Shown here one piece after another: positions 5,991 to 38,955 of a stretch of DNA of 64,000 nt; within the stretch, counting starts at the first letter, position 1, and every line of letters begins with the position of its first letter. The notes beneath the pieces were generated by a model that saw nothing but the letters and a program-made list of their open reading frames with translations, was not told where the DNA came from and ran no database searches. The stretch spans positions 4,572,044 to 4,636,043 of the forward strand of contig OZ242031.1 of assembly GCA_965205045.1 (NCBI GenBank), written 5' to 3'. Origin of the DNA: Candidatus Rariloculaceae bacterium (lineage in GTDB: Bacteria; Pseudomonadota; Gammaproteobacteria; Steroidobacterales; Rariloculaceae). The position numbers and the translations under genes were made by a program.

Positions 5991-6832
5991 AGAAGTGGAA
6001 CCTCATCGTCGACGTTGCCGAATGCACGAACTGCAACCTGTGCACACTGGCAAACCAGGACGAGCACGTCGGCAACGAGTTTGAAGGCTACGCGGCGCCG
6101 ATGCCACGCCACCGCAACCGATGGATCGAGATCCTCTCCCGCGAGCGCGGTCACGGCCCGGTAATGGACGTCGCCCACGTACCGGTCATGTGTCAGCACT
6201 GCGACGACGCGCCATGTGTGTCCGCCGCAGAAAACGGCGCAGTGACAAAGCGCGAAGACGGTATCGTCGTCATCGACCCGGTCAAGGCGAAAGGCCAGAA
6301 GGCGATCGCCGACGCCTGCCCCTACGGCGCGGTGCGCTGGAACGAAGACGCCGAACTGCCGCAGCACTGGTTCTTCGACGCCCATCTGCTCGACAACGGT
6401 TGGGACGAACCGCGCTGCAGCCAGGTCTGTGCAACGGGCGCCCTGCAGGCCGTCAAGGTGACCGACGCGGAAATGGCGCAACTCAAGGAGCGGGACGGCC
6501 TTCGCGAGCTCAAGCCGGAAGCGAGAACGCAGCCGCGAATTCATTACAGGAATTTGCATCGGTTTACGCACGAGTTCGTTGGCGGTACCGTCGTTGCGAC
6601 GGTAAACGGCGTCACCGACTGCGTGGCGGGCGCGTCCGTAAGACTGTCGGCGTCGAGCACAACCGTAGGAGAGACTGTCACTGACGCCTTCGGCGAATTC
6701 AAGATCGACTACCTGGAGCCCGACAGCGGCGAATACGAGCTTGCGATCGAAATCGACGGACGGGCGGTCAAGGCGCTGCGCGTGGAGGTCACCGACAGTG
6801 TCTACCTCGGCAGAATCGATTTGACCGCCTGA
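5987..6832 (+). CDS. 4Fe-4S ferredoxin-type beta subunit of the molybdoenzyme (BthL-like)
   Basis: ATGA overlap with the alpha-subunit stop (5987..5990). Cys clusters CTNCNLC and CQHCDDAPC. The C-terminal beta-sandwich-like tail [22 protein letters not shown] is as in the transhydroxylase small subunit. Confidence 0.85.
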
Positions 6833-13255: not shown

Positions 13256-15639
13256 TCGGTGTCCTCCGTCCCGGTGTTGTCGGGGTTGTCGGGCGCGATG
13301 CGCAGTCGCCAGGCGCCGCCTCCGGCGGCCGCTTCGGCGGGAACGACGCAGGCCATCAGCCCGGGCGCGCGTTCCACGGAAATCTCCTCCCGGCCGGCGC
13401 CCCGGACGGGGCTCGCGTGTTCGGGCAGCGCGCCGCCCGCGCCGCGGCAGGAGGCGTAGGCCGGGGCGTCCCTCCAGTTCGGGTCCGGCGCCCACAGGCA
13501 CAGGTCGAAGTCCCGCGCGCTGTCGAGCCGGTAGGCCAGCCGCGCGCTCTCGCCGAGCGCGCCCAGCTCGGCGGCCCCGGGCACGAAACAGTACGGCGAA
13601 CCGATGGCGCGCGCGCGCCGGCCGATCACCGGCGGCTGGGCGCGGCGGTTTCCCCGGCCCGGTTCCGCGGCCGGGCCCGGGACGCCCGGGACCGCCGCCG
13701 GCGCCCCGCCATGGCCCGGCGGGACGCCGCCGCCATGCTCCCCGGGCGCAGCGTCCTCCCCGTCCGATGCCGTCGGCGGGCCGCGCCGCCCCTCCTCGCC
13801 GGAACCCGGCGGGGTCCCCTCTTCGGGCGTCCCCGCCGCCGGCGCCGCCGGCGCCGCGGCCGGCGCCCCGGTCACCTCGATGCGGTAGGTCGTCGTGCCG
13901 CCCGCCATCACCCACAGCTCGGTCGCGCCGCCGTCCGGCGCCAGCGCCAGCTCCACCGCCGTGCCCGAGGGCCGCACCCGCGCCGGGCGCGTGAAGGTCG
14001 TCCCGCCCCGGCGCGAGCCCGCGAACACGCTCGCCCCGCCGTCCCAGCGCGGCGCCAGCGTCACGCGCGCCGTCCCCGCCGGCACCGACGCCCGGTACGA
14101 CAGCACATCCGTCGAGAAGGCCGGGCTCAGCGCCACCGCCCCCGAACCGGCCGCGAGCGCGAGCCCGGTCACGGTCTGCGGGTCGCGCTCCTGCGTCCTC
14201 GCCGCGTTCTGGGGGTCCTGGACAATGACGGTCACCCGGGCGCCCAGGTAATCCGCCGGGACCTCCGGCGAGTCGACGCCGTGGTCGACAACCAGGACCT
14301 CGTTGCGGGAGTCCGCGTCCCTTCCGGCGCTGACCGTGAACGTTATCGGGCCCGTGTCTCCCGCCTCGACCCGGACCCGCCCGGGAGAGACCGCGATCGC
14401 GCCGGGGTCGCTGTCGCCGGGGACGCTGACGCGCGGGGAAATGTACGCGGCGTCCCCGAGCGGCTCCTTCAGGCGGACGGTGTAGGTCGCGCTGCCGCCC
14501 TCCTCCACCGACACCTGGCCCGGGGAAGCGGCCAGATATTTGCAGTCGTCGTCGATGATTTCGATCGAAATCACCAGGCCATGGTGGCGGTCCTGCCGGT
14601 CCCAGCCTCCCCAGTCGGGACCGCCGCCGCTGCCGTGGTGCCTGATCCAGTACCGGGTGCCGGGCGGCGACTTGCACTCGTTGTCGTCCACGGCGGTGAG
14701 CCTGACCGATTTGGGATTCATCCAGTCCGTGTGGAGGTAGGACTGGGCCGGAAAGGTGACCGCGTTGTGGATCGTGAGCAGTCCGTTGTCGACCTGGGGG
14801 TAGTCGCTGCCGTCCGGCCGGACGTTGTGGTGTCGCGGCGTGATGGTCAGATCCGCGGTCGGCGGCTGGTCGATCGCGATGGGGTAGGTGATCGATGTGC
14901 CCTCGGCGATCTTCAGCCGTCCGGGTCCGAGCGGGTAGAGCCCCGGGGTGGACATGCTGCCGGCGCGGCCCAGCGAGGGATGCGCCAGCCTCACCGCGAC
15001 CTGCTGGTTGTCGGTCCAGTCCGTGGCTGGATCGTACGACCATTTGACGCCGCCCTCCTCAGCTGTGGTGGCGTCGTTGGCGGCAAGCGGTGTTCCGTCG
15101 ACGGTCAGCGTCGCGAACCTGCCGATGGCGACCTCAGAGTCGGGGCCGGTGGAGCCCGGATTGCGCTTGTTGAAGAGAATGAAAGCGTTGGCAGGGAGTG
15201 TACCGCCGTTTATATGCACAACCAAGTGTAGTCTATTAGTTGCTGAATCCCAATAGAGTGACACGACCTTATAGTTCGCCCCGTTATAGGTGAATTCATC
15301 TTCCGACAAGACGGTCGAGCTTGAGCAGTTGTCCTGGGTGGCCTCACTGTTGTCGCAGCCGAAAAAGCCGTCGTCCTCATCGACTGTCAGCGTCGCCGAC
15401 CAGATCTGGGACTGCGCCTGGGCGGGCGCGGCCGCGAACAGGCCGAGCGCGCCGAGCACCAGCGCGAGGACGGGGAGGAGGGCGGGGCCGCGCCATGCGG
15501 ACGCGGCCCGGCGCGGGCCCGCCGGAGCGGCCAAGCGGCCGCCGGTCAGTCCGGATGAAGGGGAGGGGAGCTTGCGTGCGCGCCCTCGATGGGCGGCGGC
15601 CGGTTCAGGCGGGCCGGCCTCCCGCCGCGCGCACCTCAT
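13252..15639 (-). CDS. Large secreted protein with a cadherin-like beta-sandwich domain and a C-terminal four-Cys domain (start uncertain)
   Basis: ORF 13252..15729. Hydrophobic signal: ALLPVLALVLGALGLFAAAPAQAQS. Cadherin-like stretch: LSPAFSTDVLSYRASVPAGTARVTLAPRW...TTYRIEVTG. Start candidates are ATG 15639, an in-frame TTG near 15530, or TTG/GTG upstream of the repeat. Confidence 0.65.
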   Translation of the reverse strand: MRCARREAGPPEPAAAHRGRARKLPSPSSGLTGGRLAAPAGPRRAASAWRGPALLPVLALVLGALGLFAAAPAQAQSQIWSATLTVDEDDGFFGCDNSEATQDNCSSSTVLSEDEFTYNGANYKVVSLYWDSATNRLHLVVHINGGTLPANAFILFNKRNPGSTGPDSEVAIGRFATLTVDGTPLAANDATTAEEGGVKWSYDPATDWTDNQQVAVRLAHPSLGRAGSMSTPGLYPLGPGRLKIAEGTSITYPIAIDQPPTADLTITPRHHNVRPDGSDYPQVDNGLLTIHNAVTFPAQSYLHTDWMNPKSVRLTAVDDNECKSPPGTRYWIRHHGSGGGPDWGGWDRQDRHHGLVISIEIIDDDCKYLAASPGQVSVEEGGSATYTVRLKEPLGDAAYISPRVSVPGDSDPGAIAVSPGRVRVEAGDTGPITFTVSAGRDADSRNEVLVVDHGVDSPEVPADYLGARVTVIVQDPQNAARTQERDPQTVTGLALAAGSGAVALSPAFSTDVLSYRASVPAGTARVTLAPRWDGGASVFAGSRRGGTTFTRPARVRPSGTAVELALAPDGGATELWVMAGGTTTYRIEVTGAPAAAPAAPAAGTPEEGTPPGSGEEGRRGPPTASDGEDAAPGEHGGGVPPGHGGAPAAVPGVPGPAAEPGRGNRRAQPPVIGRRARAIGSPYCFVPGAAELGALGESARLAYRLDSARDFDLCLWAPDPNWRDAPAYASCRGAGGALPEHASPVRGAGREEISVERAPGLMACVVPAEAAAGGGAWRLRIAPDNPDNTGTEDTE

Positions 15640-15640
15640 C

Positions 15641-15724
15641 GCTCGGCGCTCGGCGCTCGGCGCTCGGCGCTCGGCGCTCGGCGCTCGGCGCTCGGCGCTC
15701 GGCGCTCGGCGCTCGGCGCTCGGC
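15641..15724. repeat. Perfect heptanucleotide microsatellite, (GCTCGGC)x12 on the plus strand (GCCGAGC on the gene strand)
   Basis: Counted directly: 84 nt of uninterrupted 7-nt units, ending 1 nt upstream of ATG 15639 of the secreted-protein gene. Confidence 0.95.
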
Positions 15725-16222
15725 ACCAATTATACCGCGCCTGTCAACCCCCGCAACGAAACGAACGTTTGATGTCATGACCTGCCCCTCGAGACACCGG
15801 CAATCAATGCGGCGTGGAAGGAATTTGAACAGAATCCGCCTGCGAATTCAAGACTGCCCCGGCCGTGCGAGCGGGCCTGTTCGAAAGTCACGGCGCGGTT
15901 CTCCCGGGGGAGGCGATCGAAGCGGCCCATCGCGCGCACGATGGAGATGGCGGCGTTGCCGATCGCGGCGAGGTTTTGCGGCGGATGCCCGGCCGCGGCG
16001 CGGCGAACTCCCCGAACGCGCTCACGCCGCGGTGGCGGGCCAGCCGCGCCGCGGCCGCGATCGTCGGATGGCGCGCCAGGCTGTTGGGCGGCATGACTTC
16101 ATCCCTCCCCGTCCATGGCCTCAGGCTATACGCCCCGACTTTTGAATAGTCCTGCGCGCGTGCGCACGGTTACGGACGCGCGTATCCAAAACCATCGATT
16201 CGCTCCAGCACACCGGCGTATC

Positions 16223-20257: not shown

Positions 20258-21163
20258 ATGAGAAAATTGCTGAAGGATCCGCTGCTGCACTTCGTGGTAC
20301 TGGGCCTCGGCCTGTTCCTGCTCTATCGACTCACCGGCCAACAGGCCGACGGCGACGAGGTCCTAATCGACCGGGATGCCCTGCTGCGCCACTTGCAGTA
20401 CCAGTCCGTGGCCTTCGACCGGGCACAGTTCGAACTGTTCCTCGAAGACATGGCCGGGCGCGAAACGGCGGACCTGATCGTGGAAGCCGCCCGGGAGGAA
20501 ATCCTCTACCGCGAAGCACTGGCCATGGGACTGGACCGGGACGACTACATCATTCGCAGCCGTCTCGTTCAGAAGCTCATGTACCTGGCGGAAGGCTTCG
20601 CCAGCGACGCGGTCGGCCTGAGCGAAGAAGAAATTGAAGCGTATTTCGAAGCCAATCGCGACAGTTACGAACTCGATCCCTACATTACGCTGACCCACGT
20701 GTTCTTCAATGCCGAGCGCCGCGGGTGGGATGAGGCGCGCGCGCTGGCCGAGGCCAAACTCCGGGAACTCAACGACGGACTCGTGCAGTTCGAAGAAAGT
20801 TCCGCCCATGGAGACCGGTTCCCGTACTTCGTGAACTACATCGAGCGGCCTCCGCAACTCATCGCCAGCCACTTCGGAGGCGCAATGACCGAGGCGCTGT
20901 TCCAGCTCCCGGTCGACGCGGCATCGTGGCGGGGGCCGTACGAGTCCCGGTTCGGAACGCACCTGGTGATGGTCACCAACCAGCAACCGGAGCGCATGCC
21001 CGACTTCGATGAAGTCAGGGACCGTGTGGCGGCCGACGCCCAGGCCGCCCGCGACCGGGCACTGACGGACGCGGCCATCGATGAAATCGTGGCGCGCTAC
21101 ACCATCGTCATCGGCGCCGATCTGCAAAGCGCCGATGAGGGGACCGGGGCCCCGCCGGAATGA
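20258..21163 (+). CDS. Membrane-anchored parvulin-type peptidyl-prolyl isomerase
   Basis: N-terminal TM segment LLHFVVLGLGLFLLY. C-terminal rotamase-like stretch WRGPYESRFGTHLVMVTN. Confidence 0.7.
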   Translation: MRKLLKDPLLHFVVLGLGLFLLYRLTGQQADGDEVLIDRDALLRHLQYQSVAFDRAQFELFLEDMAGRETADLIVEAAREEILYREALAMGLDRDDYIIRSRLVQKLMYLAEGFASDAVGLSEEEIEAYFEANRDSYELDPYITLTHVFFNAERRGWDEARALAEAKLRELNDGLVQFEESSAHGDRFPYFVNYIERPPQLIASHFGGAMTEALFQLPVDAASWRGPYESRFGTHLVMVTNQQPERMPDFDEVRDRVAADAQAARDRALTDAAIDEIVARYTIVIGADLQSADEGTGAPPE

Positions 21164-21358
21164 GGCGGCTTGCCTTACTCGCCAGTTTGAGGTGGCTGGC
21201 CGCGTTCGCCGGTTTGAGGCGGCCTGCGCCACCCGCCAGTTTCAGGCGGCCTGCGCCACCCGCCAGTTTCAGGCGGCCTATGCCACCCGCCGGTTTGAGG
21301 CGGCCTGCGTCACCCGCCGGTTTGAGGCGGCCTGCCACACTTGACGGTTTGAGGCGGG
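21159..21358. repeat. 27-bp tandem array, about 7.5 units (consensus TTTGAGGCGGCCTGCGCCACCCGCCAG)
   Basis: Units were phased by hand at 21159, 21186, 21213, 21240, 21267, 21294, 21321 and 21348 (decaying). The array begins at the PPIase stop codon and ends at the HupE signal peptide. Confidence 0.9.
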
Positions 21359-27628: not shown

Positions 27629-30613
27629 TTACCGATCCGCAACGCCCCTTGCGAGCAACTGGTCAAGGCTGGTGGCTACCTCGTATTTGGCGGGGTTCTC
27701 ACGCACCCCCAGCGCTTGGAAATGCTCCTTGCCACACTTGATCTTGTAGGCTTCGGTGAGGCGCAGATCATCCTGCAGCGTGCTGCCTTTCGTCTCGACC
27801 ACGAGATATAGCCGTTCGGCTTCATCGGTGTCGATCAGAACGGCCCAATCGGGGTTGTAGCTCCCGAGCGGCGTGGGAACCTTGAACCAGCCCGGTAGCT
27901 TGGCATAGACCTTGACGGCGGGGTTGTTCTCCAGGTCGTTCGCGAACTTCGCCTCGGTGCCGTGCTCGTAGATGACCTTCTCGTACACCGATCGTTCGGC
28001 GTCGAGCATGTTGCGCAGGTAGCCCGTTAGTTCCTCCTGTTCGAAGAGTTCCTGCGCGTAGCAGGATCGATCACCGATTCGTTGGTACTTGATGCCGTCC
28101 ACCAGGACACGCCGCTTGCACCGGTTGATGATGCTCGCGGCGAGCTCGATAAACTGCTGCGGGTTGCGCTTGAAGTCGTTGAGGCGCTGACTGCCGATCA
28201 GGATTCTGCAAATGCTGCGCCGGGTGAGCTGCGTCCGGTCCTGCAACTCGGTGAGGATATCCGGTAACTCTATTTCCGGCTCATCGAGTACGACCGTAGC
28301 GGCACCTGTGACCTCGCTTGCCTCCACGCCTGCCTGACCGATGGCGATACCCGCCTTTCGCCATTGCAGCCGGGTCCGGGGGATCGGATCCGAGTTTCGC
28401 AGCTCGCCGATCGATCGCTCCAACAGTTCTTCGTTGTCGAAGGTCACGCGATAGGTGGTCTTGTGCTTGATGCGGTCCCACAGGGCCTTGAATTCGGCAC
28501 CCTCGAGCACTGCCTGGCGCGGGCGGACAGCCCGACGCTCGTCGGCGTTCTTGACCTTGAGACGCCCTGAGAGTTTCCTCAGTACGGCGGCGATGTCCGC
28601 CCTCTGGGCGGCAAATTCTTCCGGCAGGTCCAGAGTATCGTCCCGGATCGCCTTTCGGAGAGAGTCCTGTATCCGCCCCTGTGGGTCGATATAGCCTTGC
28701 GACCGCAAGTGCTCGTACAGGGTCTGCGACTGTTCGAATCCGAGGGCTGCCGTTTCTCCCGCATTGACCGCTACCGGAATCTGCGCAAACTGATGCGGTT
28801 CGACAATGCCGAAGCGGATTCCAGTCTCCTCCTCGATCTCGCGTTGAAGGTTTTCGGCAAACTCTTCGTAGCTCTCTCGGGCGATCACCGTGAGCGTATT
28901 CAATTCGAAACCGTGCAATCGTTCGCCGTCCTGATTGACGCAAAGGCGCAGCCCTCGCCCGATCGTCTGCCGGCGTTCGCGCTCGGTCCGGATGTCGCGC
29001 AGGGCGCAGATCTGGAAGACATTGGGGTTGTCCCATCCCTCGCGCAATGCAGAATGAGAGAAGATGAACTTGAGCGGCTCATCGAGGCTGAGCAGCTTCT
29101 CCTTCTCCTTCATGATCAGGTTGTAGGCGCGCTCGGCGTTGTCTCGATTCGTCTGGTTGTTCTCGGCGGTGTCGATCCATCCGCCCTTCTTGTCAATCGA
29201 GAAGTAACCATCGTGAACCTTCTCCGCCGCCGCGGTGAGGTCGGTCTCTCCGAACAGCGGCCGGTAGACGGGGTGGCGCGCAAACTTCCGGTATTCTTCC
29301 TCGAACATGCGGGCATAGTCGCCCTTGACCGCGTTGCCCGCCTCGTCGTAGCTGCGGTAACGCTCCACCGCGTCGATGAAAAAGAGGCTCAGCACCTTGA
29401 TCTCCTGCGGGCGCAGGCGCTTCTCCTTGTCGAGATGCTCGCGAATGGTTCGCCGGATCATTTGTCGCGTAACGGCGGCGGCGTCCACGTCGCCCCAGGC
29501 TTCGCCATCGCTGAGAAAATGCTCGCCTCCCGGCACGCGGAGTTCGACGAACGCGCTTTCCCGTCCGACCCTGATCTCGCCGATGCGGCAGTCTCGGTAG
29601 ACCGGTCGGCCTGTTGTCTGTTCGAGATCGTCGCCATCCATGACGACCCTCTCACCGCGACGCACTCGTCCGGCACTATCCACATCGAGCTCGACCTTCG
29701 CGCTGATGACGCCGCGTCTGTTGCTTGTCGAGAGCAGCCGGACATAGGGGCGGTTGTGGGCGTCCTCGACAGTCGCGGACGCCACCTCGATCTGCTTGAC
29801 GAGCTTGCGCTCGTAGGCATCGACCGCATCCAGCCGGTAGACCATGTGGTGCCTGTCGACGTGCGTTGCCGAGTAACGCAACGTGCAGAGCGGGTTCATC
29901 GCACCCAAGGCTGCCTTGCCCTGTCCCTTGAGGCCGCCGTCCACGCTCTGCGGTTCGTCCACGATCAGGACAGGCCGGGTGGCGCTGATTAGGTCGATGG
30001 GCTTTTCTCCGCCAGTCTTCTCGCTGTCCTTGTAGAGATTGTTGACAGCCTTCTTGTTGATGGCACCCACTGTCACCACCATGATCTGGATTTGCGGGCT
30101 GGTGGCGAAGTTTCGGACCTGGCCGAGTTTCGCCGAATCGTAGAGAAAGTACTCGAACGGCGTGCCAGAATACAGCGCCCGGAAATGATCGTCGGTTATC
30201 TGCAGCGACTTGTAGACGCCTTCCTTTATCGCGACCGACGGGACCACGATGACGAACTTGGTGAATCCGTAGCGCTTGTTCAGCTCGAAGATCGTGCGCA
30301 GGTAGACGTAGGTCTTGCCGGTGCCGGTCTCCATCTCCACTGTGAAGTCGCCGGAGGCCAGGGACCCGGACGGCGGCAGGCCGTTGCGAAGCTGGATGTC
30401 GTTGAGGTTCGCCAGAATCTCTTCGTCCAGCAAGTTCAGCCGGTTGCCGACACCGAGATTGTTGTGCGCAAAGGCAAGCGCTTCCTGCCTATCCGACGGG
30501 CTCCGGGTAACCGTGAACTCCGTGCGGCAGACCTCCTGGCCGTGGAACAGATCGCACACGGCACCCACCGCCTGCAACTGGAAATCGAGGTTGGGATCGA
30601 AGCGGAGCTTCAT
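27629..30613 (-). CDS. res: Type III restriction enzyme Res subunit (helicase plus PD-(D/E)xK nuclease)
   Basis: 994 aa. METGTGKTYVY (motif I), LIVDEPQS (motif II). C-terminal nuclease: YNPDWAVLID...LYLVVETKGS. GGAG lies before the ATG. Confidence 0.9.
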   Translation of the reverse strand: MKLRFDPNLDFQLQAVGAVCDLFHGQEVCRTEFTVTRSPSDRQEALAFAHNNLGVGNRLNLLDEEILANLNDIQLRNGLPPSGSLASGDFTVEMETGTGKTYVYLRTIFELNKRYGFTKFVIVVPSVAIKEGVYKSLQITDDHFRALYSGTPFEYFLYDSAKLGQVRNFATSPQIQIMVVTVGAINKKAVNNLYKDSEKTGGEKPIDLISATRPVLIVDEPQSVDGGLKGQGKAALGAMNPLCTLRYSATHVDRHHMVYRLDAVDAYERKLVKQIEVASATVEDAHNRPYVRLLSTSNRRGVISAKVELDVDSAGRVRRGERVVMDGDDLEQTTGRPVYRDCRIGEIRVGRESAFVELRVPGGEHFLSDGEAWGDVDAAAVTRQMIRRTIREHLDKEKRLRPQEIKVLSLFFIDAVERYRSYDEAGNAVKGDYARMFEEEYRKFARHPVYRPLFGETDLTAAAEKVHDGYFSIDKKGGWIDTAENNQTNRDNAERAYNLIMKEKEKLLSLDEPLKFIFSHSALREGWDNPNVFQICALRDIRTERERRQTIGRGLRLCVNQDGERLHGFELNTLTVIARESYEEFAENLQREIEEETGIRFGIVEPHQFAQIPVAVNAGETAALGFEQSQTLYEHLRSQGYIDPQGRIQDSLRKAIRDDTLDLPEEFAAQRADIAAVLRKLSGRLKVKNADERRAVRPRQAVLEGAEFKALWDRIKHKTTYRVTFDNEELLERSIGELRNSDPIPRTRLQWRKAGIAIGQAGVEASEVTGAATVVLDEPEIELPDILTELQDRTQLTRRSICRILIGSQRLNDFKRNPQQFIELAASIINRCKRRVLVDGIKYQRIGDRSCYAQELFEQEELTGYLRNMLDAERSVYEKVIYEHGTEAKFANDLENNPAVKVYAKLPGWFKVPTPLGSYNPDWAVLIDTDEAERLYLVVETKGSTLQDDLRLTEAYKIKCGKEHFQALGVRENPAKYEVATSLDQLLARGVADR

Positions 30614-31119
30614 TTCTCCATGTCCGCTCTAAGGCGTGCGTTTAGTTCGCCGGGGACGATACGGCCTTGCTCGATCGCTGATGCCAGGAGCGCCTTCACC
30701 CGCGCCTTGCTTATCCTCCGCCAATGTTTCTCCCTGACGGCCGCATCCACCTTTTGAGCCAGCCTCCCAAGGCGTACGTAATCGAGCTGGCAAATGTCAA
30801 CGTGGCGCTCGGCAAGGTCGGCGACGGGCGTTCGTCCCGGCGAGTCCCTGAGCGGGTGTCCATCGGATCGTAGCGCCTCCTCGTCCACCCAGACGATGTC
30901 CACCTTCGCAACGCGCTCCGCCGCCGCTGCAATCGCCAGCACCGCATCCTCGATGTCAGCGACCGCGCCAGCGTGGCATCTCCAAAACGACAGGGCATCC
31001 TGCCGGGTGCGCAGATCGCCAGTCACCGCGTCCGCTGAAATTTCGCCCCTCGACAAGCCACGCGATAAATTGCGGTCATCGTCCCACTTCGAGCGGGAAA
31101 ACTTCCGGGCAAGAAACAC
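30610..31119 (-). CDS. Hypothetical 169-aa protein, translationally coupled to res
   Basis: GTG 31119 lies 9 nt after the upstream stop. Its own stop overlaps the res ATG (ATGA at 30610..30613). N-terminus: ...SRSKWDDD...ISADAVTGDLRTRQDALSFW. No family recognised. Confidence 0.6.
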   Translation of the reverse strand: MFLARKFSRSKWDDDRNLSRGLSRGEISADAVTGDLRTRQDALSFWRCHAGAVADIEDAVLAIAAAAERVAKVDIVWVDEEALRSDGHPLRDSPGRTPVADLAERHVDICQLDYVRLGRLAQKVDAAVREKHWRRISKARVKALLASAIEQGRIVPGELNARLRADMEK

Positions 31120-31128
31120 GACGGGCGC

Positions 31129-31836
31129 CTACTCGCCGAGATCTTCCAGGACATCTTTAATGTAATCGCGGAGCCACGATACCTTTTCGGTATGGCAACG
31201 AAGTACGTCCTGGACCTCCGTGTCGCCCCATTCCTCCGCAGCCTGCACGGCTGCGTCCCTCATCTCGACATCGTTGGATGCAAGCGCATCTCGCGCAATC
31301 CGAGCTCGCCATGCCGACGTTGCGGGCCGGCGACGGCCAAGGCAGCGTAGAACCGAGGCCGCAATGCCCGGTTGCTCTACATCAATGGCCAGTCCGCGTA
31401 GCCATGAAAGTGCATCATGACTATTGAGCGAAAGCAATGCGTCGTCGATTATCTGCTCCGCTGGATGAGTGATACCATCTTCAACAGGTTCCGATTCCAG
31501 GGCAATTCTCAATCTGGTTTCAAACGATCTCGGGTCAAGGGCCAAGCCGGGGTCCAGGTCCGCAAAAAAGGTTCTGTCAACGACGGCTGGAAAAATCGTC
31601 TCTCCCAGCAAAGCAACAATCGCTGTTCCATCCGCCACATCAACCAACTCTTGCCCTAACTCGAGGAACAGGACCCTGAGGCGGGCTTGTTCCGGCGACG
31701 CTCCCAGCGACTCCCTACCGCTTGGCAAGACGGCCATTCTCTTGTAAGGCACGCTACGGCGTTCAAAACGAGAAATTGAATTGCCATGAATCATCGACGG
31801 CGACCGCGACTCTATTTTCCTGGCTTCAAGCGGCAT
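31129..31836 (-). CDS. Hypothetical 235-aa protein with a HEAT/PBS-lyase-like C-terminal repeat
   Basis: ATG 31836 overlaps the TIGR04255-like gene by 11 nt. C-terminus: ARDALASNDVEMRDAAVQAAEEWGDTEVQDVL. Alternative starts at 31794 and 31737. Confidence 0.55.
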   Translation of the reverse strand: MPLEARKIESRSPSMIHGNSISRFERRSVPYKRMAVLPSGRESLGASPEQARLRVLFLELGQELVDVADGTAIVALLGETIFPAVVDRTFFADLDPGLALDPRSFETRLRIALESEPVEDGITHPAEQIIDDALLSLNSHDALSWLRGLAIDVEQPGIAASVLRCLGRRRPATSAWRARIARDALASNDVEMRDAAVQAAEEWGDTEVQDVLRCHTEKVSWLRDYIKDVLEDLGE

Positions 31837-32596
31837 CGAAAATCCTCCTGGCCTTGTCCGTTACAATTGCTTCGAATGCGGAACCAACTCGTTCGTGAAG
31901 AGCATCGGCCAAGACCGACGCCTGCTCCGAGCCGATTGGTGGTTCCTCGTCTCTTATGGCATCCAGATCGAGGAGACACTCCACGCCGCTCTCCGAAGCG
32001 CCAAGTAGTCCGTACGATACGACCAGTCGTGCTGCATCGTCATATATGTATTCCACCCGGCTGAGGAAATTCGAATAGTCCTCTGGTAGCCCTTCGACCT
32101 TCATGTGTGCACAGTTGAGATACTCTTCGATCTCCACGTTTTGCCCAGGAATCAATATTCGATTGATGTATCGCACCCCAACACGACTGATCGCGCTTCC
32201 TTCGACGATCTTCAAGTAGGCTTCCAGCGCATCCATGATGCGGGGCCTGAACTCCTTCCAACCGCCTCGTTCAATATGTTCAGCGCTTTGGTACGGGCGC
32301 AGCATATGGATGCTGAGCACATTCGGGCCGATGCCGACCAGTCGGTTTCCGTCTTCGGTCACGAGTTGGACCTTTGCCACCCCCTCTTCGTAACTCAGGT
32401 TGGCTGGCTGCCCATCCTTGACGCTGAGTTCGACTTGCAACGCCTTCTGCTCTCTCGACTTGCCGGAATATTCGTTTCCGAGAGCTGCTTGAAGCTTTCC
32501 CGGAATGGTGAAGTCCCAATCCGACCCTGGCACAAATCGAAACTCACAGAACGCTTCCTGTATGGGAGGGCTCCTGTACCTTTTGCGCTGGTTCAT
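31826..32596 (-). CDS. TIGR04255-family uncharacterised protein
   Basis: N-terminus YRSPPIQEAFCEFRFVPGSDWDFTIPGKL and length (256 aa) fit my recollection of TIGR04255. Confidence 0.7.
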   Translation of the reverse strand: MNQRKRYRSPPIQEAFCEFRFVPGSDWDFTIPGKLQAALGNEYSGKSREQKALQVELSVKDGQPANLSYEEGVAKVQLVTEDGNRLVGIGPNVLSIHMLRPYQSAEHIERGGWKEFRPRIMDALEAYLKIVEGSAISRVGVRYINRILIPGQNVEIEEYLNCAHMKVEGLPEDYSNFLSRVEYIYDDAARLVVSYGLLGASESGVECLLDLDAIRDEEPPIGSEQASVLADALHERVGSAFEAIVTDKARRIFDAA

Positions 32597-32697
32597 TGTC
32601 TGCTTTCTCGAGTTGGGTTTCTGTCTACAGGCCCGTTACAGGGACCACTTAACTCCTGCAATCGGAAATCGAGGTCGAGTTTGAAGCGGAGTTTCAT
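32593..32697 (-). pseudogene. Fossil res 5-prime end, now a 34-codon leader ORF overlapping the TIGR04255-like start
   Basis: 32655..32697 matches res 30571..30613 at 36 of 43 nt (hand count). Peptides: MKLRFKLDLDFRLQ versus MKLRFDPNLDFQLQ. Its TGA overlaps ATG 32596 (ATGA). Confidence 0.6.
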
Positions 32698-32740
32698 GGT
32701 TGTGGCCAGCCATTCTTTTCTCAGGATCGGTTGCGAACCG

Positions 32741-32953
32741 TCATGCGTACATCAGGCGCTCGCCCTTCGGCTGGGGAATTGGATCGCCAAATTCCCCAGC
32801 CGTGTCGATCCAGAGTTGCATTGCCTCGTTGACATTTTTCAGCGCATCGTTCTGGCTGTCGCAGTGGGCCACGCAACCCGGAAGCTCCGGCACTTCGGCA
32901 ATAAAGGCCGAGTCCTCGTTGCTCCAGTACAGGATGATCTCGTACTTGTACAT
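32741..32953 (-). CDS. hicB: HicB-family antitoxin (UPF0150-type)
   Basis: MYKYEIILYWSNEDSAFIAEVPELPGCVAHCDSQNDALKNVNEAMQLWIDTAGEFGDPIPQP. Confidence 0.75.
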   Translation of the reverse strand: MYKYEIILYWSNEDSAFIAEVPELPGCVAHCDSQNDALKNVNEAMQLWIDTAGEFGDPIPQPKGERLMYA

Positions 32954-33082
32954 CAACGTTACCTTCCCTATTGATATTTCAGGAAAATCCGACGAAGCTG
33001 CTTGACCTGTTTCGGAAAAGCGAATGTTGGCATCCGACCTTCCGCCGAGGATGGTCTGCAACAGACGCTCATGGCGATTCAT
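32954..33082 (-). pseudogene. hicA: Truncated hicA toxin remnant, fused in frame to the hicB upstream region
   Basis: MNRHERLLQTILGGRSDANIRFSE resembles the first 25 or so residues of the HicA variant MNSKxRKTLxAIFxDPVxAxIxWxDIE. The rest of the toxin is missing. Confidence 0.4.
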
Positions 33083-33108: not shown

Positions 33109-35091
33109 TCACAGGCTTCGGACGTTGCCGAGACCGCGCTGCTTGAGGATCTCTGTGAGGTTTGTCTTGGCGACATCGTCGGTGAAGGCGCTGTCGCGAA
33201 ACACGACGGTGGAGTCACCCGCCGGCGCGAGCGCATCATGCCAATTGGCGATGCCCTCCGCCAGCGGCTCCGCTTCGTCGCGGGAGATTGCTTCGTCGAG
33301 GCAGGCAATCAAAGTGCCAGCGCCGACTGAGTGCACGGACTTATCCAAGATGGATCGCGTTTCGATGGGAACGCAGAGATCCAAGCCTTGTTTCAGGAGG
33401 ATTTCATAGAGGATGTCCTGCTCGGTCCGTCCCAGCTCGATATGGTCGAGATCGGAAAGCAGTGCGCCTTCCAGATCGCTTGGCGTCGGGTCCCAAGCCC
33501 GGATGTTCGAAGTATCGAGCTTGAAGACGCGGAAGCCGAGATCACCATGGTAATTGGGATTTTCGTCCCTGATCTTTCTTGTGGCGCGGCGAAGTCTCTC
33601 TTTTGTGAGTGCGGCAATGTTTCGCGGCATTCCAAGTTGGTCGCAAAACTCAACAGCAGATCGATGACTTTTGTTGCGCGGGCTAAGCCGTTCCGGTAAC
33701 TGCACAGAAATATGCCTTCTGGCCCCTCCGTCAATAGAATTCTGAGCCATTACGGCGTGTGCGGTAGTGCCCGAACCAGAGAAAAAATCCAATACGACAT
33801 CATCCGGCTTAGTTGTTATGAATACGCATCGACGCAACAATTCGACTGGTTTAGGATGATCGAATACCCCGCCCATACCCAAACGTCCGAGCTCCTTGGT
33901 TCCCTGTTCGCTGATAAACTCTGTATCAAGCCAAATCGATTTGGGTTTGGTCGTGTTCTTTCTCGATTTTTGATAGACATTCCATTTTCCATCGCGAAGC
34001 TTACGCGCAACCAATACAGGAGAATTATCCTTCAAGGAGAGGCTCGATATTTTTTCTTTACTCCAACGCCAACAGCCATCCTCTCCCTTGCTGTTCTTTG
34101 GGTATACCGCAATAGAATCAGAGTCATTCGTCAGAGAAACCTTGGAGTAGCCACATTCATCCAGTGAATCCTCTCTTGCGTATATTGGAAAAAAAAGATT
34201 CGGCCTATTATGTCGACCAAACTTTGGGTTTCTGTTACGCAATTCCCATAAGTCGAATGAACCGAGAGAATCCTGATAAGGAAGCGAACTATTTCCCTTC
34301 TCCAATTCATTAAGGCCAATACCTTCATCTTTCGAGTAGATCACCAAGAATTCATGTGTTTTGGCGATCTGCTTGTAAGTCTGTCCTCGCTTATTGGATT
34401 GGACAATAATTTGTGCTTGAAATTGTTCTTCGCCAAAAATTTCATCCAATACTTTGCGAATATTGGATACTTCCGTATCATCAATTGAAACTGCAATTAG
34501 CCCATCGACCGTCAAGAGGTTTCGTGCAACTTTGAGTCGAGGATAAATCATACTTAGCCAGTCCGTATGGAATCGGCCTGATGCTTCTGGATTGGATGTT
34601 ACGACGTGGGTGTTCTCATCTATCTGACCTGTGATCGCAAGATAGTTCTTTACGTTGCTACGATAATCGTCCGGATAAATAAAGTCCTTGCCAGTGTTGT
34701 AGGGAGGGTCGATATAGATCAGTTTCACCTTGCCGGCGTAGCTCTTTTGAAGGAGCTTCAGCACTTCCAGGTTGTCGCCTTCTATCATCAGGTTTTGCGT
34801 CGAATTCCAATCTATGCTTTCCTCGGGGCAGGGACGCAGAGTGCCGGTTGACGGTGTGAGCGCGAGTTTCCGCGCACGGCGTTTGCCATGCCAGTTGAGG
34901 CCATACTTCTCCTCTCCTTCGTCGACCGAATCTCCGAGAAGCTGTCGGAGCACGTCGAAATCCACTTTTCCCTCAGTGAATGCTTCGGGGAGCAGACCTT
35001 TCAGTTGTTCAAGGTTGTCGGCGACGATATCCGCCGAGTGCGTTTCCGGGTCGCCGGCGACGATCCTTTCCATAGTGTGCGTCTCTTTCAC
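33109..35091 (-). CDS. mod: Type III-like Mod DNA methyltransferase (beta-class amino-methyltransferase)
   Basis: KLIYIDPPYNTGKDF (motif IV) precedes VLDFFSGSGTTAHAV (motif I). GTG 35091 overlaps the DUF4391 stop; alternative ATG at 35073. Confidence 0.9.
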   Translation of the reverse strand: MKETHTMERIVAGDPETHSADIVADNLEQLKGLLPEAFTEGKVDFDVLRQLLGDSVDEGEEKYGLNWHGKRRARKLALTPSTGTLRPCPEESIDWNSTQNLMIEGDNLEVLKLLQKSYAGKVKLIYIDPPYNTGKDFIYPDDYRSNVKNYLAITGQIDENTHVVTSNPEASGRFHTDWLSMIYPRLKVARNLLTVDGLIAVSIDDTEVSNIRKVLDEIFGEEQFQAQIIVQSNKRGQTYKQIAKTHEFLVIYSKDEGIGLNELEKGNSSLPYQDSLGSFDLWELRNRNPKFGRHNRPNLFFPIYAREDSLDECGYSKVSLTNDSDSIAVYPKNSKGEDGCWRWSKEKISSLSLKDNSPVLVARKLRDGKWNVYQKSRKNTTKPKSIWLDTEFISEQGTKELGRLGMGGVFDHPKPVELLRRCVFITTKPDDVVLDFFSGSGTTAHAVMAQNSIDGGARRHISVQLPERLSPRNKSHRSAVEFCDQLGMPRNIAALTKERLRRATRKIRDENPNYHGDLGFRVFKLDTSNIRAWDPTPSDLEGALLSDLDHIELGRTEQDILYEILLKQGLDLCVPIETRSILDKSVHSVGAGTLIACLDEAISRDEAEPLAEGIANWHDALAPAGDSTVVFRDSAFTDDVAKTNLTEILKQRGLGNVRSL

Positions 35092-35846
35092 AGTCTAGCC
35101 CGCGCCGCGTCCCGGCCGACGCGCAACCGCGCCAGCTCAATATTCATTTCGGCTCGACGGGCCATCTGTTTCTCCTTGCTTGCGGCGGAGTATACATTCG
35201 CGATCCTCTCGCTGAGATACCTGTATTCCCGTAATGCTGCCTCCTTTTCGGAGGCAGCGGCCGCCGTGGGCGGAAGGCGAAAGCCGCCCGTAATCGTGGC
35301 AGCTTGGAGCGCCTGGACCGTAGCGATCCACCCCCGATACAAATCCCGGAGCGTCCCGCGCGGTTGCCTCACTAGGGCAAGGGCGTCGCGAAACGCTGCC
35401 AATGACTCGCCCGGGCAGTCACCGCTGACCCGCGTGGAGACGATCTCACCGTCGATCACGATCTTGTGGGATTCTCCCAGCGAATGGCGCTTGTGGGCCA
35501 GCGAGAGTCCCGGCGTTCCTTCACTCCATGCGATCAGGAGCACCGGATACGGGATGGAACGGTGAATCAATTCGACAAGACGCTCGCTACGTGCGGCGGG
35601 ACGCAGCACGAGCTTCAGAATAGTAATCTCATGGTACTCTCGGTCGGCGTCACGGTATTCGGCAACGCCGACGGTGGCCGGTTTGAGCGCCGCGAGCCAC
35701 CGTAATTCCTCGATACCCTCCCCGATGCGCCGCCGGTCGCCCGCTGCGAAGGTGCCGTTCTCGATGAGCAGAGTCTTGGGAACGCGGCGGTCGACGAGCG
35801 CATCAGCTGGGAGCGCGAGCGCCTCGAAGGGATCGAATGGTGTCAC
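35088..35846 (-). CDS. DUF4391-domain protein
   Basis: RRVPKTLLIENG...IEELRWLAALKPATVGV...YHEITILKLVLR...IHRSIPYPVLLIAW...LSLAHKR fits the DUF4391 pattern as I recall it. GTG start overlaps the helicase stop (GTGA). Confidence 0.7.
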   Translation of the reverse strand: MTPFDPFEALALPADALVDRRVPKTLLIENGTFAAGDRRRIGEGIEELRWLAALKPATVGVAEYRDADREYHEITILKLVLRPAARSERLVELIHRSIPYPVLLIAWSEGTPGLSLAHKRHSLGESHKIVIDGEIVSTRVSGDCPGESLAAFRDALALVRQPRGTLRDLYRGWIATVQALQAATITGGFRLPPTAAAASEKEAALREYRYLSERIANVYSAASKEKQMARRAEMNIELARLRVGRDAARARL

Positions 35847-38701
35847 GACGCTACTCCCGCGAGCACGACGAGAAACGCCACCACCTCAAAGTCGTCCATT
35901 CCGGCGAACTCGCCAGACAAGGCGTGAGTGCCTCCGGGTGAGAAGAGGCTGGCGATGGCGCGCTCCTCACCCTTTCCGACGATGGCAGAAATGGCAGCGG
36001 CAAGCTGACGTTGCACGGCGTGCATTTCCTTCCCCTGGCGGGTGGCCGCGTCGAAATGGCGACAGGCCGAAGCATCAGGTATGTCCTTGCCGACACAAAG
36101 CCGCTTGAGGCGATCGAGAATGGCCTTGGCCTGGATGAACGGCAGCAAAACCGACCCATCCTCACCAACATGGACCAGATAGTGCGGCGCCAGCGGATAG
36201 CCCGGCTGAAACCGGGCATCCGCAGCGGTGCCCTCGGCACGCAGACAGAAGATCACGCCCGGTGGAACGTCGTCGTCTGCCGCAATGGCGATCGCGTGCA
36301 TACCGAGCGGGACCGATTCCAGCGCTTCCGGGTCGGCCCTGCGATAGTCGGCCAGGTCGATCCGAAAATCGGTCAGCGTCAGATCGGCGATGGAGACGCC
36401 CGATGACAAGTCCTCCAGATCGATCACCGCGTCCAAAAGCTTCAGGAGATGCTTGCGTCGGTACGCCAGATCATTCATTGGATCGCCGGACTGCTGCTCG
36501 ATCAGGTTTTCCTCGCCGGTGGCGGAAATATCCAGAAGCACCATGCGCCCGCTCACGCGCTGCTCCAGCCGAAGATATTCCTCCAGTTCCATGTTTGGCC
36601 AAAAGTTGACGAGTTGGATCCGCTCGTTGGGCGAGCCGATGCGGTCGATGCGCCCGAAGCGCTGGATGATGCGCACCGGATTCCAGTGAATGTCGTAGTT
36701 GATGAGCCAGTCGCAGTCCTGCAGGTTCTGACCTTCCGAGATGCAGTCCGTCGCGATCAGAAGATCGATCTCGCCTTCGCTCGCCAGATCGTCCGGACAC
36801 TCCTTGGTTCGAGGCGCGAAGGCGGTAAGGATGGACGCAAGGTCGCGCCGCAGGTCGGGCAATGTCGTCCGATTGCCCCCCGTGCCGGTGACCAAGGCGG
36901 CTTGCACCCCCAGGGAATCCCGCGCCCAGGGCGCCAGCGCGTCGTACAGGTAACGCGCGGTGTCGGCGAAGGCCGTGAACACGATGATCTTTCGGTTCCC
37001 GACGTTGATTGGCTCGCGGCATTTCCGCTCGATCATCGCCCGCAGCTCGGCCAGCTTCGCATCGCGTTCAGCGGTCACCTTGCGGGCTGCGGCGTGCAGC
37101 GTTGCCAGCCGGTCGCGGTCTTCGATCAGGTCCTGGCGCCAACGAACCGGATCGACGTCCTGGAGCAGAACCTTGACCTTGCGGCCGACCAGAAGGCTCT
37201 CAAAGGTCGGATCCTCGATATCGATGTCAGCGATATCGAACTCTTCGAGGTCGGCTTCTTGTGCCTCGATACGCGCAAGCAGGACCTCGATGTCATTGAG
37301 CTGACGCTGCACGGTCAGCGCGAAGGAGGCGACCGAGCTTTCCATGCGCTTCGGCACGTTCGCGCGCAGGAGGTGAACCAAGCTCTCCTCGCGGTCCAGT
37401 TGCCGGAACGTCCCGCCTCCGCGGCGAAGTCGGGTGCTGTATTTCTTGTCATACGCTTCTTGCCTGTGCGCCAATACATAGCGCAGCGGTGCGTACTCGG
37501 TGGCGAATGCAATCTGGTTACGCAGATCCGCCAGCCGATTGTTCACGGGCGTCGCCGTCAGCATGAGGACCCGGGTCTTCACGCCTTCACGCACGATGCG
37601 GCGCATCAGCCGGTCGTAGCGCGTTTCGCTGCCCTGCCGGGGTGATCGCTTGTTGCGGAAGTTATGCGACTCGTCAATGACGACGAGATCGTAGTTGCCC
37701 CAGTTCAAATGGGCCAGGTCGATATCGCCCGACAGGCCGCGGTCGCGCGACAGGTCGGTGTGATTGAGCACATCGTAGTTGAAGCGGTCGCGCGCCAGGA
37801 TGTTGCGGCGGTCGTTGGCGCGGTACAGGGTCCAGTTGTCGCGGAGCCGCTTGGGACAGAGCACCAGAACGCGGTCGTTGCGTAGTTCGTGGTACTTGAT
37901 GATGGCCAACGCCTCGAAGGTTTTTCCGAGCCCAACGCTGTCGGCAATGATGCAACCGCCAAACCGGTCGAGCTTGTCAATCGCACCGACGACTCCGTCG
38001 CGTTGGAAACGGTAGAGTCTCTGCCAGACCTCGGTTTCGCGAATCCCGGTTGCAGATTTGACTACCCGGTCTTCATCGAGTTCGCCACCCTCGATACGAA
38101 ACAGGTGGTGCAGGATCAGCGCGTAGATGCTGGACGGAGCGCGATGTTCGGCAAGGCGACGCAACGTGTCAATTGTCAGCAACTTCGCAGTGTCGTCGCC
38201 CGCCAATCCGGACCACTGCGAATCGAACCATACCCCTAGCCGCTTACATTCTTCGGGCGTTTCGGACGCCTGAATCAAGTTGAGTGGATTGCCGGGTGCG
38301 AGGCCGAGCCCGTCGGTGCTGAACGAGAACGAACCGATCAGAGCCTGTCTCGTGCGACCATCTCCGTTCCGCAGCACGATCGCGCCCTGTGGGACCGCTC
38401 CGTTTGCTTTGCGCACCTCCGCCGATTTCTCGACCCAGTCCGCGCATTGGCCCGCCAGCCAGCGGGTCTGCAGGCGATTACGGGCGGCGCGATCCGCATC
38501 GGTTCCCAGAAGGTCGAGTTCGGCTGCTTCGGGAGGCAGGACGAGTCGCGCACCGGCCATTTTCGCCAATTGTCCGGCAAGCTCTCCAAACGCAAAAAGC
38601 GACAGCGTTCGGGACGCGAGATCGACCCGATTGCCGGTCCCTAGCCAGGGCCGGACGATGTCGACCACGCGGTCGGCGCCGGTATTGGGAACGATCCTCA
38701 T
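35843..38701 (-). CDS. SNF2-family helicase with N- and C-terminal extensions
   Basis: ADSVGLGKTFEA (motif I), LVVIDESHNFRN (motif II), MLTATPVNN (motif III), QRFGRIDRIGS (motif VI). ATG 38701 forms an ATGA overlap with the upstream small ORF. The track ORF starts at 38719. Confidence 0.9.
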   Translation of the reverse strand: MRIVPNTGADRVVDIVRPWLGTGNRVDLASRTLSLFAFGELAGQLAKMAGARLVLPPEAAELDLLGTDADRAARNRLQTRWLAGQCADWVEKSAEVRKANGAVPQGAIVLRNGDGRTRQALIGSFSFSTDGLGLAPGNPLNLIQASETPEECKRLGVWFDSQWSGLAGDDTAKLLTIDTLRRLAEHRAPSSIYALILHHLFRIEGGELDEDRVVKSATGIRETEVWQRLYRFQRDGVVGAIDKLDRFGGCIIADSVGLGKTFEALAIIKYHELRNDRVLVLCPKRLRDNWTLYRANDRRNILARDRFNYDVLNHTDLSRDRGLSGDIDLAHLNWGNYDLVVIDESHNFRNKRSPRQGSETRYDRLMRRIVREGVKTRVLMLTATPVNNRLADLRNQIAFATEYAPLRYVLAHRQEAYDKKYSTRLRRGGGTFRQLDREESLVHLLRANVPKRMESSVASFALTVQRQLNDIEVLLARIEAQEADLEEFDIADIDIEDPTFESLLVGRKVKVLLQDVDPVRWRQDLIEDRDRLATLHAAARKVTAERDAKLAELRAMIERKCREPINVGNRKIIVFTAFADTARYLYDALAPWARDSLGVQAALVTGTGGNRTTLPDLRRDLASILTAFAPRTKECPDDLASEGEIDLLIATDCISEGQNLQDCDWLINYDIHWNPVRIIQRFGRIDRIGSPNERIQLVNFWPNMELEEYLRLEQRVSGRMVLLDISATGEENLIEQQSGDPMNDLAYRRKHLLKLLDAVIDLEDLSSGVSIADLTLTDFRIDLADYRRADPEALESVPLGMHAIAIAADDDVPPGVIFCLRAEGTAADARFQPGYPLAPHYLVHVGEDGSVLLPFIQAKAILDRLKRLCVGKDIPDASACRHFDAATRQGKEMHAVQRQLAAAISAIVGKGEERAIASLFSPGGTHALSGEFAGMDDFEVVAFLVVLAGVAS

Positions 38702-38955
38702 CGTGGCCCGGCGGTCCATCGGTTCAGGGTGGCGACACCGGAGTTGCGGCGTTCGTCGGTACTCTGCGTTACTACTGCAACCCTGTGGCTGGCCGCTGCC
38801 GCACGAATGGCATCTGGCAAGCGATCATCGAGCAGTTCGCCACGCCGGTGGTTTTCCCCCATGATCTGCGCACGTTCCCGGCTGTCAGCCAAGACCCACC
38901 CGACTATCCGGCCCACGAACGGATCGTCGAGATTGCGGGTCGTGATGCCGGCCAT
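38698..38955 (-). CDS. Possible 85-aa leader gene of the helicase operon
   Basis: Acidic/basic protein-like composition. Its stop overlaps the helicase ATG (ATGA at 38698..38701). No family recognised. Confidence 0.3.
   Translation of the reverse strand: MAGITTRNLDDPFVGRIVGWVLADSRERAQIMGENHRRGELLDDRLPDAIRAAAASHRVAVVTQSTDERRNSGVATLNRWTAGPR

Follow-up and report, generated by a model that had tools for sequence, protein, structure and literature searches.

Within the 64,000-nt stretch of DNA analysed here (the window), the methyltransferase gene (mod) and the restriction endonuclease gene (res) of a minus-strand Type III R-M operon are separated by two blocks of accessory genes, and at the seam between these blocks lies a 43-nt copy of the start of res that is very probably a dead 5' stub, left by the illegitimate recombination that stacked the two blocks between mod and res. 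Genes embedded in R-M, BREX and similar operons guide the discovery of immune systems, and the route by which they arrive is not known; the seam in the window would document how two such embedded cargos were stacked. The gene calls made in an initial sequence-only reading of this DNA (SNF2 helicase, DUF4391, Type III Mod, HicB-like, TIGR04255 family and Type III Res) were confirmed, and the features of the operon are listed below with the evidence for each in parentheses (related loci carry numbers prefixed with L).

35843..38719, minus strand: SNF2-like helicase gene with a 339-nt in-frame deletion at 37495/37496 (annotation and comparison with relatives)
35088..35846, minus strand: DUF4391 gene (Pfam, E = 6e-58)
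33109..35091, minus strand: mod, Type III methyltransferase, 660 aa (PADLOC MTase_III, E = 1.4e-210)
32954..33082, minus strand: hicA toxin remnant fused in frame to hicB (comparison with relatives)
32741..32953, minus strand: hicB antitoxin-like gene, 70 aa (Pfam HicB_lk_antitox / UPF0150; aligns to the HicB of L062)
32698..32740, minus strand: hicB-to-stub spacer, 43 nt (L062 is laid out alike, about 40 nt separating hicB from res)
32655..32697, minus strand: fossil 5' stub of res, copied from its nt 1-43 (codons 1-14) (match to the res start, PSSM, nhmmer, position kept in L166, L167 and L168)
32593..32697, minus strand: 34-codon ORF opened by the stub, judged non-functional (its TGA overlaps the TIGR04255 ATG as ATGA)
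32597..32654, minus strand: 58-nt segment between stub and cassette, tentatively a mod end plus the cassette 5' spacer (MAFFT, Smith-Waterman)
31826..32596, minus strand: cassette gene 1, TIGR04255 family, 256 aa (NCBIfam TIGR04255, E = 1.8e-35)
31129..31836, minus strand: cassette gene 2, 235 aa, weak HEAT-like similarity (co-occurrence with genes 1 and 3, seen in more than 80 loci)
30610..31119, minus strand: cassette gene 3, p169, 169 aa, whose stop overlaps the res ATG (214 homologues)
27629..30613, minus strand: res, Type III restriction endonuclease, 994 aa, functional source of the stub (PADLOC REase_III, 1320 bits, full length; Pfam ResIII and RE_endonuc)

Direct alignment of the res start (30613..30571) with the minus strand at 32697..32655 gives identity at 36 of 43 bases. 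Read from 32697, the minus strand is ATGAAACTCCGCTTCAAACTCGACCTCGATTTCCGATTGCAGG, and res read from 30613 is ATGAAGCTCCGCTTCGATCCCAACCTCGATTTCCAGTTGCAGG; the encoded peptides are MKLRFKLDLDFRLQ for the stub and MKLRFDPNLDFQLQ for the res start. The similarity sets in at the ATG, the preceding 60 nt being unrelated, and is gone past codon 14, while a GGAG stands 5' of the real res and is absent from the stub. All of these points had been claimed in the sequence-only reading and were reproduced. That reading had also allowed that the match might prove no better than background; an exhaustive direct self-comparison of the 64 kb, however, returned at least 36 of 43 matches solely for the stub and res and for tandem arrays near 15.6 and 21.2 kb, leaving stub and res as the sole dispersed pair of the window at that level. 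The arrays themselves consist of a perfect 7-nt repeat at 15640-15724 (CGCTCGG, 12 copies) and a 27-nt repeat at 21151-21357 (7.7 copies, 81% matches).

A PSSM derived from 73 Res N-termini was scanned against all six frames of the window and of 80 related loci (about 1.4 Mb), and the stub was its only match outside res; codons 1-14 of the stub score 21.3 and contain the N-terminal motif MKLxFxxxLxYQ of this Res family. At the nucleotide level, an nhmmer profile built from 70 res starts finds the stub with E = 1.2e-3 over 2.3 Mb and E = 1.4e-5 within mod-res gaps, the alignment spanning positions 1-39 of the model. Nucleotide conservation of the res start is moderate, ranking 20 of 77 bins, which rules out exceptionally conserved DNA at this position.

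Through the cluster of p169 at 90%, three independent metagenome contigs were identified, L166, L167 and L168, all of which carry the seam of the window. The 50-kb contig L166 has 91-93% nucleotide identity to the window across the operon; its operon is flanked (1-1512 and 15021-16094) by caspase-like (Peptidase_C14), TIR and patatin genes, and the locus therefore lies in a defence island. Nucleotides 1-43 of res are invariant in the window, L166 and L167, and the L168 contig, which shows nt 1-29 only, also matches. The stub of L168, ATGAAGCTCCGCTTCGATCCCTACTTCGATCTCCAGTTGCAGG, is identical to the resident res start at 40 of 43 positions and shares with it the clade-specific GATCCC and CAGTTGCAGG; the stub therefore originated as an almost exact duplicate of the resident res allele, and the earlier suggestion that a different res allele had come in with the cassette is not borne out. 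In the window and in all three relatives, the similarity of stub and res stops at base 44. To judge from these contigs, the seam-forming event is older than the split of the four lineages. It might still be argued that an unrelated short ORF has come to resemble the Res N-terminus by chance or convergence, the latter being a conserved and simple motif; however, 64 kb and 1.4 Mb of related loci hold no other such match, the DNA identity extends to synonymous positions and to clade-specific codons, as the L168 comparison illustrates, and the stub occupies the position that res itself has in the related loci L001 and L062. A coincidence of this kind is vanishingly improbable and, on the PSSM, nhmmer and L168 comparisons, effectively refuted, so that the 43-nt stub, as judged from its sequence, is a real res paralogue, beyond chance.

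The same relatives bear on what the stub might do at present. The 34-codon ORF that it opens, with a stop overlapping the TIGR04255-like start, is present as first described. Compared with L166, this ORF has undergone five nonsynonymous changes and one synonymous change, and in L168 it meets a premature stop at codon 30, 12 nt early, the C>T substitution responsible also restoring a CTTGAG motif. Both observations contradict the notion of a conserved independent gene, and no purifying selection on ORF length or peptide, as for a small gene or leader peptide, is apparent in the relatives. A Pfam search with the ORF found no match, and the helicase (ResIII/DEAD) and endonuclease domains are absent from its 34 codons; because it is this short, resembles Res only as far as codon 14 and matches no Pfam family, the stub is a fragment of res and not a res gene. 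No Shine-Dalgarno (SD) sequence precedes its ATG. Co-option as a leader ORF, the ATGA overlap linking its translation with that of the first cassette gene, would agree with the intact ORF and overlap in the window and in L166/L167 (two of three lineages) and with the degenerate SD of the TIGR04255 gene in the window lineage (GAGAAAG, versus GAGGA in relatives). Such a role is nevertheless improbable, given that the stub ATG has no SD of its own, that nonsynonymous changes prevail, that the L168 ORF is shortened, that 20 further open codons are not unlikely at 62% GC and that an analogous stub in L031, described below, is frameshifted. Structured RNA, a promoter or a terminator at the seam was likewise rejected: the seam has no Rfam match, its RNA fold is unremarkable (z = -0.22) and no sigma-70 promoter match was found. 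As far as the sequence tells, the stub is a decaying pseudogene fragment, and it is presumably without function today.

On the mod side of the stub lies a degraded hicAB module, on its res side the cassette, with all three genes intact; the hicAB block has a recognisable counterpart among the relatives. In the sequence-only reading, hicB was treated as a plain gene, and a deleted hicA remnant within it was overlooked: the 113-aa ORF is a fusion in which the first 24 codons represent the hicA start (92% identical to the HicA of L062), a deletion of about 129 nt having removed the hicA core with its GSHH and joined the remainder in frame to hicB. The same deletion occurs in L166, together with a TTG start and frame stops. 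In L001 and L062, res directly follows hicB, at the place held by the stub in the window, and L062 contains the full hicA-hicB pair, with a hicB-res spacer of about 40 nt compared with the 43 nt between hicB and the stub; alleles of this kind had been named as a check on the original proposal. The second layout, with the cassette directly between mod and res and the p169 stop overlapping the res ATG, is found in L032, L083 and L170. In the clade nearest to the window, the cassette is embedded in L032, L082, L083, L166 and L170, and the ATGA overlap of p169 and res is kept in L032, L082, L083, L166, L170 and L175. The same clade includes the nearest outgroups, L169 and L175, where a truncated res and an IS come after the cassette and the IS-disrupted flanks favour neither block as the later arrival, as well as loci with the cassette away from R-M genes (L081, L084 and L171-L174, described below). 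The site in the window combines paralogy to the end of a neighbouring gene, an abrupt boundary and the existence of both parental layouts in relatives; the stub is a genuine recombination scar without evident function, an ordinary kind of object. These features, together with L166-L168, uphold the earlier claim that a fossil start of res marks a recombination scar within an R-M operon.

It is proposed that the present arrangement would have arisen from two blocks. Block H would comprise the end of mod, the hicA remnant, hicB, the 43-nt spacer and res nt 1-43, which corresponds to the layout of relatives with hicAB directly before res; block C would comprise a short leader, the three cassette genes (TIGR04255, 235 aa and 169 aa) and res, corresponding to the mod-cassette-res layout of relatives in which the p169 stop lies over the res ATG. 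The two would have been joined non-homologously after res base 43/44, and homologous crossing-over within res or mod probably accompanied this join, through homology-facilitated illegitimate recombination or through unequal exchange between two cargo variants of one locus. Given that stub and resident res were nearly identical at the outset, DNA exchanged between close variants or an intragenomic duplication fits better than a distant donor, and the simple picture of an inserted foreign cassette may be wrong. Neither parental layout was found within the close lineage of the window, and the reconstruction relies on relatives whose res is 75-80% identical.

The 58 nt between stub and cassette (32597..32654) may hold a further trace of this join. 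At 32625-32632, GCCTGTAG may tentatively be read as the final 8 nt of a mod gene, stop included; MAFFT, with a 5-nt gap, aligned the segment to L083, L082 and L032 over their mod ends and cassette leaders, and Smith-Waterman comparison gave p = 0.005 against L083 and p = 0.04 against L032. The stop in GCCTGTAG lies 28 nt before the cassette ATG, compared with 25-31 nt in L032, L082, L083, L170 and L171. Match-count and profile tests for a mod 3' remnant in these 58 nt were not significant, and a mod remnant beside the stub is regarded as plausible.

Which of the two blocks was the later arrival can be argued in both directions. The sequence-only reading had spoken of a recombination or insertion that brought in the cassette; the scar stands, but the cassette is one of two possible newcomers, because the hicAB block could equally have been added later, as L083 and the old ATGA overlap suggest. 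Were the cassette the later element, a mod-hicAB-res locus would have received the leader, the cassette and the 5' part of res from a mod-cassette-res locus; the homologous crossover would have fallen within res, and the illegitimate join at position +43 of the recipient res. This course of events, quite possible if somewhat short of an even chance, accounts for a stub lying exactly where res follows hicB in L001 and L062, and it accords with a cassette that demonstrably moves with mod and res scraps and with a hicA gene that is already decayed, suggesting an old block H. It is at odds with L083 (mod-cassette-res, no hicB), the locus to which the window is closest in DUF4391, in the mod N-terminus and throughout res, with the long linkage implied by the similar ranking of cassette and res divergences across loci and by the conserved ATGA overlap, and with the fact that no distinct donor allele is visible, the stub being near-identical to the present res start. 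A mosaic test placed the window closest to L083 along the whole res gene, this advantage being weakly lost after about 2.0 kb, and no crossover in res could be called by it.

Conversely, a mod-cassette-res locus could have received the last approximately 45 nt of mod, hicAB and res nt 1-43 from a mod-hicAB-res locus, with a homologous crossover in the mod 3' end and the donor res joined illegitimately at +43 just upstream of the cassette. The standing of L083 as the closest overall relative speaks for this order, and the last seven informative sites of mod (about 45 nt, with the TGA stop) are all L062-like, whereas earlier sites are mixed; furthermore, GCCTGTAG and ACAGAAAC past the stub resemble the mod end and spacer of L083. 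The seven-site run, however, reaches only p of about 0.01, the stub resembles the resident res (40/43) and not that of L062, and the mod remnant lacks significance in profile tests, which leaves a late hicAB block likewise a realistic possibility that falls a little below even odds.

Scraps of mod and res ends occur at other loci as well. In L031 (an Akkermansiaceae MAG), a second res stub at 3969-4017, of about 48 nt with about 38 matches, is frameshifted, lies 1.07 kb upstream of res and separates RhuM-like and 148-aa genes from a different two-gene block; immediately after it stands GCCTGTAA, the usual last 8 nt of mod. The nhmmer profile detects this stub with E = 8e-5 overall and 9e-7 in gaps, and by these alignments it is an independent analogue of the stub in the window. 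In L082, the order is the real mod, other genes, a degenerate hicB, a vapC-like stub, a mod 3' remnant and the cassette; here the interval 6387-6504 contains a 14-codon vapC-like stub (MSDTEVILDTNVVS, then a stop), after which comes a mod 3' remnant of 52 nt (E = 1e-7) adjoining the cassette, and res is split into several ORFs. Upstream of its cassette, L081 retains about 126 nt from the 3' end of mod (3608-3738, E = 4e-13), and in L081 (5724-5740) and L084 11-18 nt of the res start lie downstream of the cassette. A mod C-terminal remnant of about 620 nt is present in L171-L174 (5873-6494, E = 5e-12). The cassettes of L081/L084 and L171-L174 lie outside R-M loci, between ubiD and arsC or in IS-rich regions. 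Among 35 cargo-bearing loci, remnants are limited to three with composite gaps, namely the window, L031 and L082. The breakpoints vary, falling at +11, +18, +43 and +48 in res and at about -8, -52, -126 and -620 in mod.

Direct repeats flanking the cassette, the comparable length of two independent stubs (43 and 48 nt) and cassettes outside R-M loci with scraps of both flanks might suggest that the res start, with the mod end, serves as a site-specific, integron-like attachment site and that the 43-nt copies are the attL and attR of a mobile cassette. Such an attachment site is very unlikely, however: the breakpoint differs in each independent case, no recombinase or integrase is encoded among the nine operon proteins or next to the operon, repeats are absent from 32 of 35 cargo loci, a shared cargo brings no excess identity to the 60 nt of mod or res nearest the junction, and the res start is only moderately conserved. 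Differing breakpoints, the lack of a recombinase and the mostly repeat-free cargo loci therefore favour illegitimate over site-specific joins. A transposon target-site duplication was also rejected, as the 43-nt repeat starts at a start codon and the cargo is without transposase. Together, the scraps in the window, L031, L082, L081/L084 and L171-174 point to ordinary illegitimate and homologous recombination and not to dedicated integration machinery.

A Res-based scan yielded 80 loci from many phyla, onto which the window proteins were mapped. SNF2-DUF4391-mod-res constitutes the conserved core of these loci. Where both ends were visible, res lies within a few bases of mod in 34 of 68 loci, and the other 34 carry cargo of 0.2-3.6 kb between the two genes, including Fic, SLFN-AlbA_2/HATPase_c_4, DarT+Macro, RhuM, YhcG/DUF1016, AAA_21+DUF4276, PDDEXK_3, AIG2/GGACT and the TIGR04255 cassette. 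These counts bear out the earlier view of the mod-res junction as an exchange site in an R-M operon, and both kinds of allele proposed as checks on it, with res right after mod and with other cargo (Fic, DarT/Macro, RhuM, YhcG and others), exist. In the window itself, the cassette and hicB are nested between mod and res on the same (minus) strand. A general model in which end sequences travel as handles with the cargo was rejected by a junction-identity test of 56 loci, in which pairs with the same cargo are closer overall but gain nothing further in identity over the 60 nt at the end of mod or the 60 nt at the start of res.

Several observations concern other parts of the operon. Extra DNA of 0.5-3.5 kb also occurs at the SNF2-DUF4391 junction (L006, L014, L015, L025, L052, L059 and L077) and at the DUF4391-mod junction (L012, L020, L023, L035, L037 and L040); embedding is therefore not confined to mod-res. 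Tandem mod genes, two or three before one res, are seen in L053 (89-4852), L032 (1705-7989) and L042 (4117-8111). The target-recognition region of the window's mod (about 33700-34700) contains about 1 kb without nucleotide similarity to L166 between flanks of 91-93% identity, and a specificity-region swap between close relatives can therefore be deduced. The SNF2 gene of the window is without a 339-nt (113-codon) in-frame block that separates the two helicase lobes and is kept in L166 (91% identical at the nucleotide level) and in all of about 50 related loci; the deletion junction is clean, falls on codon boundaries and has no microhomology. The SNF2 helicase of the window is probably inactive, or its sequence has been altered.

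The seam also draws attention to the cassette, which is a candidate new defence system on comparative sequence grounds. As a stand-alone unit, it consists of a TIGR04255 protein, a protein of about 232 aa and one of about 169 aa, and it is widespread, often in defence-island-like contexts (L081-L165 and L169-L175); the three genes occur together in 80 metagenome loci, mostly without a nearby R-M gene. p169 has 214 homologues and matches no Pfam family, the TIGR04255 protein has no Pfam or PADLOC match, and the cassette proteins as a whole match nothing in PADLOC. The AF2 models of p169 (pLDDT 92.6) and of the TIGR04255 protein (pLDDT 84.3) are confident and gave no significant fold or sequence match in a PDB search; the best weak matches of p169 are ADP-ribosyltransferase-like Tpt1, DarT and NarE, with non-significant scores. 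No plasmid homologue of the cassette was found, a literature search for TIGR04255 returned no mention, and one combining DUF4391 with restriction returned a single match, an unrelated phage-structure preprint. It might tentatively be conceived, although the chances lie rather against it, that embedding of this type is built by cargo exchange and stacking between variants of R-M loci, through one homologous and one illegitimate join and with scraps of mod and res carried along, and that the escaped cassette is an anti-phage system in its own right, one that has co-evolved with Type III res, as the stop/start overlap would suggest.

Comparison with known systems places the seam between several familiar phenomena. 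Homology-facilitated illegitimate recombination, which couples one homologous anchor to one non-homologous join and is known from natural transformation of Acinetobacter and pneumococcus, would likewise yield DNA beside a homologous gene, a short duplicated or truncated end and variable breakpoints; in contrast to that process, the case described here is known from sequence alone, and decay hides the anchor side and any microhomology at the join. As at genomic-island sites with duplicated tRNA 3' ends or attL/attR, a gene-end repeat flanks the block and the functional copy lies on one side; unlike genomic islands, there is no integrase, the breakpoints are unconserved and the repeat is the 5' end of a protein gene inside an operon. 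Integron gene cassettes share the stacking of promoterless cargo in one orientation at one junction but differ in having an integrase, a structured attC site and a common junction sequence, none of which has a counterpart here.

The closest parallel is the embedding of defence genes ('guilt-by-embedding') described in Hma, BREX, DISARM and Type I R-M systems, with PrrC in EcoprrI as an example of an embedded defence gene (Payne et al. 2024, bioRxiv 10.1101/2024.01.29.577857). That study offers the idea of a 'genomic sink' only, without an insertion mechanism, and the word 'recombination' is absent from it (bioRxiv 10.1101/2024.01.29.577857); for DarTG2, which lies between hsdS and hsdR, a possible hotspot of recombination has been suggested (PMC12255303), and the Type III mod-res pair is treated in neither bioRxiv 10.1101/2024.01.29.577857 nor PMC12255303. 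As in those systems, accessory defence or TA genes lie between R-M subunit genes, on the same strand and co-oriented, and the cargo of the window's family (DarTG, Fic, RhuM, YhcG, AlbA_2 and ABC-ATPase pairs) belongs to the usual embedded repertoire. Unlike the published cases, the present one shows embedding in a Type III family, at the mod-res junction, where half of the sampled loci are occupied, and preserves the physical seam between two stacked cargos.
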